DNA of 49,628 nt. Source: Escherichia phage JMPW1. The notes under the pieces are model-generated. The model was not told the origin of the DNA, ran no database searches, and worked only from the letters and a program-made list of their open reading frames with translations. The position numbers and the translations under genes are program-made. Position 1 is the first letter of the stretch, and every line of letters starts with the position of its first letter. The stretch lies in the sequence record NC_041874.1; one strand, written 5' to 3'. Shown here one piece after another: positions 18,711 to 23,428 of the stretch.

Positions 18711-19098
18711 GTTATCAGCGGCGGCGCGAGCCGCTTTTCTATCAAAGTACAGAGACTTTCCTCACTACATGGAAAACAGAAATTTCACACCTCCTAAGGA
18801 TGGCGGCATGTGGCTGAGGTTCAACTACATTGAGGGGGATACGCTTTATCTATCCATTGACAGAAAGTGTAAATCTTACATCGCAATCGTTCAGATCGGC
18901 GTAGTGTTCCCTCCAGGCTCCGGCGTTGACGAAGCAAGATTGAAGGCAAAAGAGATTGCTGATTTTTTCAAAGATGGTAAAATGCTTAACGTTGGTTATA
19001 TTTTCGAGGGTGCAATCGTGCATCAAATTGTTAAACATGAAAGCGGGTGGATGATTCCGGTTCGCTTTACAGTACGAGTAGACACAAAGGAGACTTAA
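18700..19098 (+). CDS. putative tail terminator-like protein
   Basis: Gene order immediately upstream of major tail protein. Confidence 0.3.
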   Translation: MHYELSAAARAAFLSKYRDFPHYMENRNFTPPKDGGMWLRFNYIEGDTLYLSIDRKCKSYIAIVQIGVVFPPGSGVDEARLKAKEIADFFKDGKMLNVGYIFEGAIVHQIVKHESGWMIPVRFTVRVDTKET

Positions 19099-19099
19099 T

Positions 19100-19768
19100 A
19101 TGCACTTACCAAATGGCGCGCAAATTTTCGTGGAAACCTCTCGCGGAGAAGAGATAGAGGCGACCGCTGTCACTAACGAAAAAAATCCTGTTGCTACAGT
19201 TGCATCTAAAGGTGACTTAGTAAAAGGTGATTACGTTATTGTAACTCAGTCAACTTGGGCTAAGATGGTTAGTCGAGTACTAATTGTTACTGACGCTCAG
19301 GAAACAAGTATTACTCTTGCTGGAATTGACACTACTGATACTCTTGTTTTCCCGGCTGGCGGTACAATGAGCTTTGCAAAAGTTACTGGTTGGACTGAGA
19401 TCCCTTGCGTACAGGAGATTGGTCAGGACGGCGGCGAGCAGCAGTATTACACTTATCAGTGTTTGTCCGACGATAAAGAACAGCAGATCCCTACGTTTAA
19501 ATCTGCAATCTCGCTAACGTACACCTTCGCGCACGAATTTGATAACCCTATCTATCCTATTCTGCGTAAGCTGGATTCTTCTGGTCAGGTAACTGCGGTT
19601 CGGATGTATGTTCCAAAAGCGAACGAGATGCGCATGTGGGCTGGTATCTTGTCTTTTAACGACATTCCGTCTACGCAAGTAAACGAAATGGAAACGGTAC
19701 AACTAGCCGTATCCCTGAAAGGTGACTTTACTTTCATCTCATCCACTCTGGCATCGCCTGGTGCTTAA
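19100..19768 (+). CDS. major tail protein (putative)
   Basis: 222 aa, followed by terminator and chaperone pair with frameshift. Confidence 0.55.
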   Translation: MHLPNGAQIFVETSRGEEIEATAVTNEKNPVATVASKGDLVKGDYVIVTQSTWAKMVSRVLIVTDAQETSITLAGIDTTDTLVFPAGGTMSFAKVTGWTEIPCVQEIGQDGGEQQYYTYQCLSDDKEQQIPTFKSAISLTYTFAHEFDNPIYPILRKLDSSGQVTAVRMYVPKANEMRMWAGILSFNDIPSTQVNEMETVQLAVSLKGDFTFISSTLASPGA

Positions 19769-19780
19769 ATACCATCCATA

Positions 19781-19805
19781 GGGGGCTTGCGCCCCCTTAT
19801 TCATT
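19781..19805 (+). terminator. intrinsic terminator after major tail gene
   Basis: GGGGGC-TTGC-GCCCCC then TTATTCATTT. Confidence 0.55.
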
Positions 19806-19843
19806 TCTGTAAAATCATCCTATCAACTCTATTCACTTAACTT

Positions 19844-19860
19844 TTAACAAAAAGTGCTAT
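19844..19860 (+). promoter_or_regulatory. Reverse-orientation box in leader of tail chaperone gene
   Basis: TTAACAAAAAGTGCTAT, then CCAATCAGGAGA RBS. Confidence 0.45.
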
Positions 19861-19881
19861 CAACCAATCAGGAGAAACATC

Positions 19882-20199
19882 ATGGCTAAATTCAATTTCG
19901 TGTTGGGCCAGCTTCCAGACTTCAAACTTCCGGTGACGTTCACCATGCCAAACGGCGAGGATGCAACTATTATTTTTACAGTGCGCCACCTTTCCAGTAA
20001 AGAAGTGCAAGATATGTATGCGAAGCAGGGCGAAATGAATGATAGCGATTTCATCACTAAGATCGCGTCAGGCTGGAATCTGGAAGAAGAATTTAACGAA
20101 GAGAATACGCGTAAACTGGTACAGTATTATCCTTCCGCAGCGTACAACCTGACGGCAACTTACATCAAGGCGCTTGCCGGACACCGCGCAAAAAACTAA
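19882..20199 (+). CDS. tail assembly chaperone (G-like)
   Basis: Position between major tail and tape measure; ends at slippery site. Confidence 0.6.
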   Translation: MAKFNFVLGQLPDFKLPVTFTMPNGEDATIIFTVRHLSSKEVQDMYAKQGEMNDSDFITKIASGWNLEEEFNEENTRKLVQYYPSAAYNLTATYIKALAGHRAKN

Positions 20200-20516
20200 A
20201 AAGGGCGGTTTATCTGTTATATCAGAAACCGCCGACAGAAGAGCAATTACGATCGGTTGGCCTCAGTCTTTCTGACTATGAAGACGAGGAACCGGAAACG
20301 ATAATCGGCGATACTGAAATGGTGAAGGCGTGGAATGTTTTTACGTCAATGCTCACTCAGTGGAGAAGTTCAGGCGCTGGAGCTTATGGTCTTGACTATA
20401 ATGTTTTGCCTATGTTGTTCAAAATCTATAAAATAGAAGATGAAGAACTGGCATTGCAGGACGTTAGAATCATGGAAGCGAAAGCGCTTGAAATGGTTGC
20501 TAAGCAAAACAACTAA
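19882..20516 (+). CDS. tail assembly chaperone -1 frameshift fusion product (GT-like)
   Basis: Slippery heptamer A_AAA_AAC at 20190-20196 just before TAA; -1 frame open through 20516. Confidence 0.55.
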
Positions 20517-20538
20517 GCCGCCGTTTGGCGGTTTTTTC
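20517..20538 (+). terminator. hairpin + T-run upstream of tape measure gene
   Basis: CCGCC-GTTT-GGCGG then TTTTTT. Confidence 0.45.
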
Positions 20539-20554
20539 GTATATAGGGGGTTAT

Positions 20555-23428
20555 ATGGTTGATAAGGTAGCAGGTCTGTCGCTTGACGTTGATGTGTCAA
20601 CAGTGCAGCGCGCCGTCAAGTCACTGAAAGAGTTTTCAAAGGCCAACGACCAGGCCGCTGATTCTATGGGTTCTTTAATCAATGAGTCAGAGGTTGCAAA
20701 ACAGAAGGCCAAAGAACACGCTGAACAACTAAGGCGCCAGAGAAAAGAGTATGAGGCCGTGGAGAAGGCAATCGATCCTACAGTATCAAAAATGGAAAGG
20801 TTGAAGATTGCATCTCAGCAGCTTGATAAACTCTGGCAGCAGGGAGTCGTTCCAGATGAGACGTTTTTCCGTTTGGGTGAAATGCTGGATCTGCAAAACG
20901 CAAAACTTGCTCGCAGCCGGGCTATGCTTACGGAAGAAGGTCAGGCGGCATTGCAGGAAGCGAAAGCAAAAGAGCAGGCGGCAGCACGAAGCAAGGCGTT
21001 CATGGATGCCCTGAATGGTCAAGTTAACGCGATCGGCAAGACTCATGCTGAATTGATGGAACTGAAAGCGGCTGAGCTTGGTTTATCGAAAGAAGCAGCA
21101 CCACTAATCGCAAAACTTAAAGATCAAGGCCGAGCTATGAATGCAGCAGGTATTAGCGCCGGGGAATACAGGCAAGCAATGCGAATGCTTCCTGCACAGA
21201 TTACCGACGTCGTTACATCTCTTGCGTCCGGCATGCCAGTTTGGATGGTTGCCATCCAGCAAGGCGGTCAAATCAAGGACTCGTTCGGCGGGATTGGTAA
21301 TACGTTTAAAGTGTTGCTGAGTTATATTAATCCAGTCACAGCAGGTATTGGCGTTCTTGTTGGTTCGTTAGGTCTTCTGGCGAAAGCTGGTTATGACTCT
21401 TACAAGTCAATAACTGATATTCAGAATGCGCTTATTGAGACTGGCGGTTATGCAGGTGTTACGGCTGAAGATCTTGATTCAGTGTCTAAAAAGATCGCGC
21501 AGACAAGTAACTCAACCATTGGGAGTATTCGCGAGATTGTAACGGAGTTGGCAAGTTCTGGTAAGTACACCCGCGAGCAGATCCAGAACATCACTAAGGC
21601 TACCGCAGAGTGGTCAGCGTCAACAGGAAAATCAGCAAGTCAAATTATTTCTGAGTTCGACAAAATCGCAAGCGATCCGGTAAAAGGTCTGAAGAAGTTA
21701 AATGAGCAATATAATTTCCTTGAAAAAGGGCAGCTTACCTATATCGATACATTAAGCCGGACGAAAGGAGAAACTGAGGCAGTATCTGAAGCAACGAAAT
21801 TATTCGCCGACGTAATGGAAAAGCGAATGAAGTCAATAGCGGATAATGCTACCCCTCTGGAAAAAATGTGGAACGATATTAAACAATGGGCTTCGGACGC
21901 GTGGGGATGGGTGGGTGATCATACACTTGGGGCGCTAAACCTGATTATTGATGTGGTTCAGGGTACAGTGATTCAGGTAAAAATGATTCTTGCGAAAGGT
22001 GACGAATACATCTCAAACTTTATTGCCTCTGCGATTAAGGCTACACAGTCTCTTCCTGGTATGAGTGATTTCGGCGCTGATGTACTGAAGGAGCAGGAGA
22101 ATATTGTAAAAAGTTCTCGCGACAACTACGATCAGTTATCTTCAGAGCTTGACGCTATTAACGCTCGTGTAGAAAAAGGAGAGATGGGATACATTGAAGC
22201 AATGAGGCAGCGTCGCACTCTTGAAAAGCAGTACAGCGAGGAAACTAAGGAGGCAATAAGGAAAGAAGCAGAAGAGATCGAGAAGCGAAACCGAGAACGA
22301 AATAAGCAGTCGAAAATTGTACGCTCACCGACAGAGCAATTCGACAAGGAGTTAATTTCACTCAAGGCTCAACTTAAGGTATTGCAGGAGCACAAGGAGA
22401 TCGGGCAAAAACTTTCCGCACAGAGAAAGGCGTTGTTTACAACTGAGGCTACGATCGCTGTTCTTCGCGAAGCCAGCTCTAAGCGTCAGTTGTCTGCGGA
22501 AGAAAAAGCGTTGCTGGCAAGTCAGGAGAGAGTTATTGAGCTTGCAAAACAGAAGGCCGAGATTGGCGATCAGATTGTTAAGCAACAACAGTTGAATGAT
22601 CTTACCGATAAATCTCTGAAGTTTGTCAATGAGATGACGGCGGCGACAGAACAGCTTAACGCGTCACGCGGTCTTAGCACGCGCGAAATGGAACGACAAG
22701 CGGAACTGGCTAAAATAACCACTGATTACATCAACTCTGGAGGTAGTGAGGGAGACGAAAAACTCCAGAACATGATTAAGGCGCAAAATGATTACTACGC
22801 TGCGGAAGATGCCAAGCGTGCTGACTGGTTAGCTGGTGCTGAAAGTGCTTTTGCTGATTACGGTGATGCAGCAATGGATATGTACGGCAATGTTAACGAT
22901 ATCGCGTCAAGTGCACTTAACGGAATGTCAGATATGATGGTTCAATTTCTGACCACAGGAAAAGCGAACTTTGAGGACTTTGCGAAAAATATCATCGGCA
23001 TGATTATAAAGATGATTGCTCAGATGGTAATCTTCAATACGATCTCAGGCATGATGGGCGGTAAGACGTGGAGCTTTGCTGGAGGGGCGTCGTCTGGTGC
23101 TTCTGCGGCATCACAGGCAACCCCTACACCTGCCGCTTCTGTTTTTAGATCTGCATCATCCGGCGGGGCCGCTGTATCACTTGCTGCCGCAGCGGGTAGC
23201 GTGGCAACCTCTGGATTCAACGCATCAAACTCGGCGCCAAAGGCGATAAACCATTCAGGAGGTGGAACGGTAGTTGATGTTAGTGGAATGGAGGTGAGAG
23301 TTGACAACGGCTCAGATCCGAGGGGGATTTCTCAGGGTGTAGAAATGATGTTCAAAAAGATGATTCGCGAGTCTTGTTCGCAGGGCGGCGAGGTTTATAA
23401 TTACATTCAGGAAAAAACAGGAGGCTAA
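20555..23428 (+). CDS. tail tape measure protein
   Basis: About 957 aa, coiled-coil-rich, Gly/Ala/Met-rich hydrophobic segment, follows frameshift chaperones. Confidence 0.85.

Follow-up and report, generated by a model that had tools for sequence, protein, structure and literature searches.

The tail assembly (tape measure) chaperone gene of Escherichia phage JMPW1, a T1-like phage, very probably carries a programmed -1 ribosomal frameshift, as judged from the sequence of this phage and of its relatives. The window, that is the whole stretch of 49,628 nucleotides that was analysed (NC_041874.1), belongs to a T1-like siphophage of the Drexlerviridae, genus Tunavirus. Over 19100-20560, it displays 100% nucleotide identity to Escherichia phage phi2013 and 95% to phage T1. 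The frameshift is already known: it is annotated in T1, and T1-like phages have been described as having 'a conserved translational frameshift' (PMC4319613; PMC8104045).

In the proposed model, most ribosomes would translate 19882-20196 and terminate at the TAA codon 20197-20199, leading to a chaperone of 105 aa that, by analogy with lambda gpG, would coat the tape measure protein. In a small proportion of cases, the ribosome would slip back by one base within A_AAA_AAC and read CTA AAA AGG and the following codons up to 20513, leading to a fusion of 211 aa whose C-terminal DUF1799 would recruit the major tail protein, by analogy with the T domain of lambda. Neither chaperone product would be expected in the virion. 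We infer that the ribosome is the agent of the shift, that the ratio is low and that the two products play these roles.

The chaperone cassette and its slip site

The short ORF and the -1 extension lie between the genes of the major tail protein and of the tape measure protein (Table 1), an order that is characteristic of the G/GT class. The original prediction had taken the short ORF for a tail assembly chaperone and had placed the pair just upstream of the tape measure gene, and both statements agree with the profile matches. Indeed, the short ORF reaches 128.6 bits with Phage_TAC_4 (gathering cut-off 21.1), and its downstream neighbour matches both PF06791 and PF09718. The extension matches DUF1799 over its residues 24-100 (E-value 5e-12; 46.3 bits for a gathering threshold of 26). 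Furthermore, the short ORF matches positions 1-107 and the extension positions 109-212 of the same PHROG profile (17368, 213 positions), and the fused forms therefore belong to that family.

Table 1. Features of the chaperone locus of JMPW1 (positions in the window)
Feature	Position	Strand	Basis
Major tail (tube) protein gene	19100..19768	+	Pfam PF08813 Phage_tail_3, 1.4e-70; PHROG 584 major tail protein
Shine-Dalgarno AGGAG, 7 nt 5' of the chaperone ATG	19870..19874	+	Sequence read; the T1 record has an equivalent RBS
Short product, tail assembly (tape measure) chaperone, 105 aa	19882..20199	+	ORF; Pfam PF08748 Phage_TAC_4, 2e-37
Slippery heptamer A_AAA_AAC	20190..20196	+	Last two sense codons of the short ORF and the preceding A
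0-frame stop TAA, abutting the heptamer	20197..20199	+	Sequence read; relatives
-1-frame extension, 106 codons and stop, DUF1799	20196..20516	+	Open frame; Pfam PF08809; PHROG 17368; conserved translation
Predicted long product, 211 aa	join(19882..20196,20196..20516)	+	Fusion of the short ORF and the -1 extension
Candidate stimulatory RNA hairpin, 7 nt 3' of the heptamer	20204..20233	+	Predicted fold; synonymous-recoding test
First in-frame ATG of the -1 ORF	20319..20321	+	Taken in phi2013 as the start of a distinct 65-aa 'hypothetical protein'; not conserved
Terminator-like hairpin and T-run, between the chaperone cassette and the tape measure gene	20515..20534	+	A rho-independent terminator is annotated there in T1
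Tape measure protein gene, ATG 20555	20555..23428	+	PF06791 TMP_2, 7.6e-74; PF09718 (Tape_meas_lam_C), 9.4e-26

The AlphaFold model of the short protein (pLDDT 77.7) matches BFVD models of 'tape measure chaperone' proteins from other phages, with a best E-value of 1.6e-10, and these include long forms of 210 aa and 236 aa. A Foldseek comparison of this model with the PDB returned nothing below an E-value of 0.68, and thus no solved relative, and a sequence search of the PDB with the 211-aa fusion returned only chance matches to proteasome subunits (E-value ~0.08).

The sequence 20185-20199 reads CGC GCA AAA AAC TAA in the frame of the short ORF. The statement that this ORF ends with the heptamer immediately followed by its stop codon is thus confirmed, and A_AAA_AAC stands in the X_XXY_YYZ register with respect to the upstream frame, as does a canonical heptamer of -1 frameshifting. 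The -1 frame had been said to be open from 20196 to 20516 and to include the ORF starting at 20319, which is correct; it is in fact open already from 20115, just after a TAA at 20112-20114, and extends to the stop codon 20514-20516, with the ATG 20319 inside. The overlap in which a -1 shift yields a fusion therefore covers 27 codons. On inspection of 20115-20196, no second X_XXY_YYZ or Z_ZZN motif was seen, so that the A-run is the sole shift-prone motif of this overlap, and no AGGAGG-like stretch was seen within ~15 nt upstream of the heptamer. A search for the frameshift elements of Rfam gave no relevant family, the best match being RF01840 on the minus strand at the terminator hairpin (17.8 bits for a threshold of 45; E-value 0.95).

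The motif is not rare in the genome. AAAAAAC is found in 20 copies (14.8 +/- 3.9 expected) and is not enriched, and the long ORFs of the genome contain 35 in-frame X_XXY_YYZ heptamers in 12,977 codon positions. From this count, the chance of finding one in-frame slippery heptamer in an overlap of 27-28 codons is ~7%. The JMPW1 genome alone is therefore not compelling, and it is its conservation in relatives that raises the motif above chance.

Conservation in relatives and the downstream hairpin

The relatives were collected by a protein search and by a scan of viral contigs. The protein search gave 23 homologues, down to 45% identity, 20 of which end with K-N. The scan gave 71 loci with 44-100% amino acid identity. 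These loci were fetched with two peptide patterns, one of which included the K-N encoded by the heptamer and the other not; because of the former, the sample is biased towards retention of the heptamer. AAAAAAC followed by an immediate stop codon is found in 64 of the 71 loci. All intact loci have a -1 ORF of 104-107 codons, and the +1 frame closes quickly. Heptamer, stop and -1 ORF are kept in relatives down to 44% identity.

Among 50 distinct sequences, the heptamer does not vary at positions 1-3 and 7, nor does the T of the stop codon. Position 1, the third base of GCA or GTA, is constant although synonymous, and position 7 is always C, although T would be synonymous in both frames as judged by reading the codons; at the neighbouring Arg codon, two codons upstream, all four third bases occur. 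The 0-frame stop of every intact relative is TAA, but for two loci with TGA, and the Leu codon that covers the stop in the -1 frame is never CTC or CTT, two codons that would abolish it.

The extension peptides are conserved from their very first codon (LKRAVYLxYQKPPTD/E...). Directly from the heptamer on, substitutions follow the codon periodicity of the -1 frame: over the first 30 codons after the heptamer, the column entropy is 0.51, 0.36 and 1.28 bits at the first, second and third codon positions of this frame, respectively. By the sequence comparison, the segment 20196-20318 is coding in the -1 frame and has no conserved independent start. As the 41 N-terminal residues of the extension are conserved and lack a usable start, they would be made only by recoding. 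Globally, all the predictions that a -1 frameshift of the G/GT type makes at the sequence level hold at this locus.

Some relatives carry other slip sites. Five JK06/Sf12-like loci (L042-L046, ~1806-1815; Shigella phage Sf12, e4/1c, C119, JK06-like) read GCA AAG GTC TAA; only A_AAG is left, there is no downstream hairpin (MFE ~0) and the -1 ORF of 106 codons is intact. Two metagenome contigs (L075 and L076, 1007-1018; SRR12203212 and ERZ10551960) read GTA AAA TCT TAA; only A_AAA is left, together with an intact -1 ORF of 105 codons and a weakened hairpin (-8 kcal/mol, z -1.3). As the latter variant was found in two independent samples, a sequencing error is unlikely. Furthermore, two loci, L029 (~1807-1815) and L071 (~1800-1815), harbour a run of five A rather than six, so that the extension falls in the +1 frame. 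These A5 runs are probably due to sequencing errors. In L071, other frame breaks and indels affect the chaperone gene, which makes homopolymer sequencing errors likely; L029 may carry a real indel at the slip site.

The candidate hairpin has a stem of 7+4 bp, interrupted by a 2-nt bulge and closed by a 6-nt loop; its arms are 20204-20210 plus 20213-20216, and 20223-20233. Its MFE is -16.1 kcal/mol (z -4.98), and it starts 7 nt after the heptamer, within the 5-9 nt spacer of a canonical -1 frameshift signal. Among 5,000 recodings of the same peptide with the codon usage of the phage, only 0.06% are as stable (p ~0.0006). The 5' end of the stem lies in a rare Arg codon, AGG, which accounts for 8% of the Arg codons of the sampled genes, and the relatives that bear the hairpin have AGG or CGG. 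These relatives show the same excess over recoding; the G proteins of six of them are 54-63% identical to that of JMPW1 and the G protein of one is 97% identical.

As regards a downstream RNA structure, which the original prediction had raised, the outcome is therefore mixed: a hairpin beyond the expectation from synonymous recoding does exist, but it is absent from several clades and lacks real covariation. Indeed, it is missing in several clades that keep the heptamer, for example in L015 and L047, which encode an identical peptide, as well as in JK06-like, Rtp-like and other groups. In the covariation analysis, 75% of the cells are paired, against 73% in shuffles, and the pairs changed on both sides number three, a value reached in 69 of 500 shuffles. 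As a control slid by -1 scores higher than the real structure, covariation was not counted as support for the hairpin. The Rtp-like loci L057 and L061, and L048, display instead long-range stems that start 6-7 nt after the heptamer and use the same G-rich 5' arm with other 3' partners (z -4.5, -2.9 and -3.9, respectively, over the first 100 nt after the heptamer). The predicted hairpin is a plausible lineage-specific stimulator and not a defining part of the signal.

A second stem-loop is predicted at 20254-20294, inside the extension ORF; the 104-nt segment 20197-20300 as a whole folds at -32.9 kcal/mol (z -3.55).

Alternatives to a ribosomal shift and the nature of the slip

One alternative would be an accidental overlap without function, in which a chance heptamer precedes the unexpressed or decaying remnant of an ORF. 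The lack of enrichment of AAAAAAC and the 35 in-frame slippery heptamers of the long ORFs are in keeping with it; however, relatives down to 44% identity share the heptamer, the stop and a full-length -1 ORF that is under purifying selection, and the probability of such an accident is close to negligible. Two separate genes without recoding, namely the 105-aa chaperone and a small DUF1799 protein translated from ATG 20319 (65 aa) or from another internal start, would correspond to the annotation of phi2013, in which Gp37 and Gp38 are distinct, and to many records in which two hypothetical proteins are given, or in which a TTG serves as the start of 89-aa 'DUF1799 domain-containing' proteins. 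This TTG is, however, a TTA in JMPW1, where inspection detected no ATG, GTG or TTG in the -1 frame over 20115-20318 and no Shine-Dalgarno of the AGGA/GGAG type upstream of ATG 20319. Moreover, the Met encoded at 20319 is absent in L059, L066 and L067, the DUF1799 match begins 18 codons upstream of this ATG, and the stretch of 41 codons that leads from the heptamer to the ATG shows conservation at the protein level, with substitutions biased towards third positions. Without recoding, 119 nt would be non-coding. Two independent genes are thus extremely unlikely.

Efficient slippage by the E. coli RNA polymerase needs runs of ~8-9 nucleotides or more. Transcriptional slippage at the A-run, in which the polymerase would add one A to A6, would give an A7 mRNA reading GCA AAA AAA CUA, that is A-K-K-L, the exact junction of the product deposited for T1. 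The A-run is indeed the conserved element, and the A5 of two related contigs indicates that it is error-prone, at least for sequencing or for polymerases. Nevertheless, A6 is short for such slippage, and the relatives with GCA AAG GTC (A3) or GTA AAA TCT (A4), where it is impossible, keep the intact -1 ORF and motifs for a ribosomal shift on Lys codons. The hairpin spacing of 7 nt is, in addition, typical of ribosomal stimulators. All this makes transcriptional slippage very unlikely.

Two modes of ribosomal slippage can be considered on A_AAA_AAC. A tandem slip of tRNA-Lys and tRNA-Asn in the P and A sites would yield the junction ...A-K-N-L-K-R, whereas a slip of tRNA-Lys only, on A_AAA, would yield ...A-K-K-L-K-R; we consider them about equally probable. 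The original prediction implied the canonical tandem slip and therefore a K-N-L junction, which is not that of the deposited T1 product (AAP50000.2); this protein equals the K-K-L fusion that we assembled from the T1 DNA. Exact-match look-ups of the K-N-L fusions of JMPW1 and T1 found neither in the protein collection, where only the K-K-L fusion of T1 is deposited. Since the A_AAA_AAC, A_AAG and A_AAA sites share only A_AAR at the same codon, a Lys slip is hinted at as their common denominator.

The hairpin and the abutting stop are plausible lineage-specific enhancers of an intrinsically weak heptamer. A stop codon next to the run may act as a 'shifty stop'; it is just as possible that the conserved adjacent stop simply marks where the short protein ends. 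In E. coli reporters, frameshifting on AAAAAAC amounts to 0.163% when no stimulator is present, to 0.189% with those of IS911 and to 0.739% with the pseudoknot of IS3 (PMC4066793, supplement). Such a low efficiency suits the system because lambda makes G and GT at ~30:1; nevertheless, the values for the bare heptamer are far below the ~1:30 of lambda, which counts against the model.

It is conceivable, although rather unlikely, that the essential event is a single tRNA-Lys slip on A_AAR (20190-20193, giving K-K-L) and that everything else is lineage-specific tuning of the GT:G ratio. If so, this tuning would comprise the lengthening of the run to A6C, the stop that abuts it and, 6-7 nt downstream, a stem anchored on GGGCGG, the 3' partners of which would differ between clades. 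This reading draws on the relatives that retain just A_AAG or A_AAA at that codon, whether or not a hairpin follows.

Related recoding systems and annotation of T1-like records

A G-T frameshift is conserved in a wide range of long-tailed phages, and the ratio is 30:1 in lambda (PMC5009743). [quoted passage not shown] In JMPW1 too, the second ORF lacks an independent start and, out of frame with the first, overlaps its 3' end; the slippery sequence located in this overlap is conserved among relatives. Further traits by which the G/GT class is recognized (Xu, Hendrix and Duda 2004) are a low, fixed ratio of the long fusion and its requirement for tail assembly. The relationship to lambda nevertheless appears to be one of position and architecture only. 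Comparisons by hhalign gave no sign of homology, with a probability of 0.07% for the G alignment against lambda G and of 1.4% for the extension against lambda T. The lambda G / G-T chaperones are reportedly the subject of studies by Levin et al. (1993) and by Xu, Hendrix and Duda (2004, 2013, 2014). The G and T ORFs of lambda overlap by 19 nt. The slip site of lambda, G_GGA_AAG, is not known to need a downstream structure. In JMPW1, the weak heptamer stands directly against the stop codon, with a hairpin downstream.

The insA-insB' frameshift of IS1 differs from the JMPW1 site in that its stop codon is not known to be adjacent to the heptamer. A_AAA_AAC is a proven -1 site of IS1 in E. coli (PMC4066793), and the two systems thus share the heptamer, the ribosomes of E. 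coli and a low efficiency that fits a low product ratio (PMC4066793); the product of IS1 is, however, a transposase, and no stimulator is established (PMC4066793).

The likeness to the dnaX gene of E. coli lies in a slippage on an A-run that involves tRNA-Lys. In dnaX, there is a downstream stem-loop at a spacing similar to that of JMPW1, together with an upstream stimulator resembling a Shine-Dalgarno, and the frameshift, with an efficiency of ~50%, leads to the shorter product. The tau/gamma motif is A_AAA_AAG, with the highly shifty AAG in the A site (PMC5009743). None of the AAG in the A site, the upstream stimulator, the ~50% efficiency and the shorter product applies to JMPW1.

Compared with these systems, the JMPW1 locus adds a well-conserved example to the G/GT rule and opens no new question. 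Its twist is a heptamer that is weak in E. coli and abuts the stop codon, followed by a hairpin kept at synonymous sites. Furthermore, the relatives with A_AAA_AAC, A_AAG and A_AAA provide a convenient natural series on how phages set the chaperone ratio.

The closest described counterpart is the T1 pair CPTT1_038/CPTT1_039 (AAP49960.1; frameshift product AAP50000.2; GenBank AY216660), that is the same genes at the same place. The sequence CGCGCAAAAAACTAAAAAGGGCGGTTTATCTGTTATATCAGAAACCGCC is identical in T1 and JMPW1, which therefore have the same heptamer, stop and hairpin. The T1 fusion is likewise 211 aa long, and its extension differs from that of JMPW1 by two residues (T/A and V/I). The T1 record describes it by a CDS joined from two pieces, the 'tape measure chaperone, frameshift product'. 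Literature searches on the frameshift and the tail assembly chaperone of T1 otherwise returned genome announcements and reviews, and no direct demonstration of the long T1 product was found in them. In phi2013 (MT427400.3), where 18862-19496 corresponds to JMPW1 19882-20516, two separate hypothetical proteins (Gp37 and Gp38) are annotated, one for the chaperone and the other for the final 65 codons of the extension, and many T1-like records are split in the same way or name both products 'tail length tape measure protein'. The practical value of the present analysis thus concerns annotation: a joined CDS like that of T1 should be entered for phi2013 and for most T1-like records.

GC hairpins followed by T-runs, resembling terminators, are found on both sides of the chaperone cassette, at 19780-19797 after the major tail gene and at 20515-20534. 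A terminator immediately upstream of the tape measure gene is curious in a late operon. In the ORF list, this gene begins with TTG 20525, which lies within the terminator-like hairpin; in T1, the annotated start is the counterpart of ATG 20555, with a G-rich RBS upstream.
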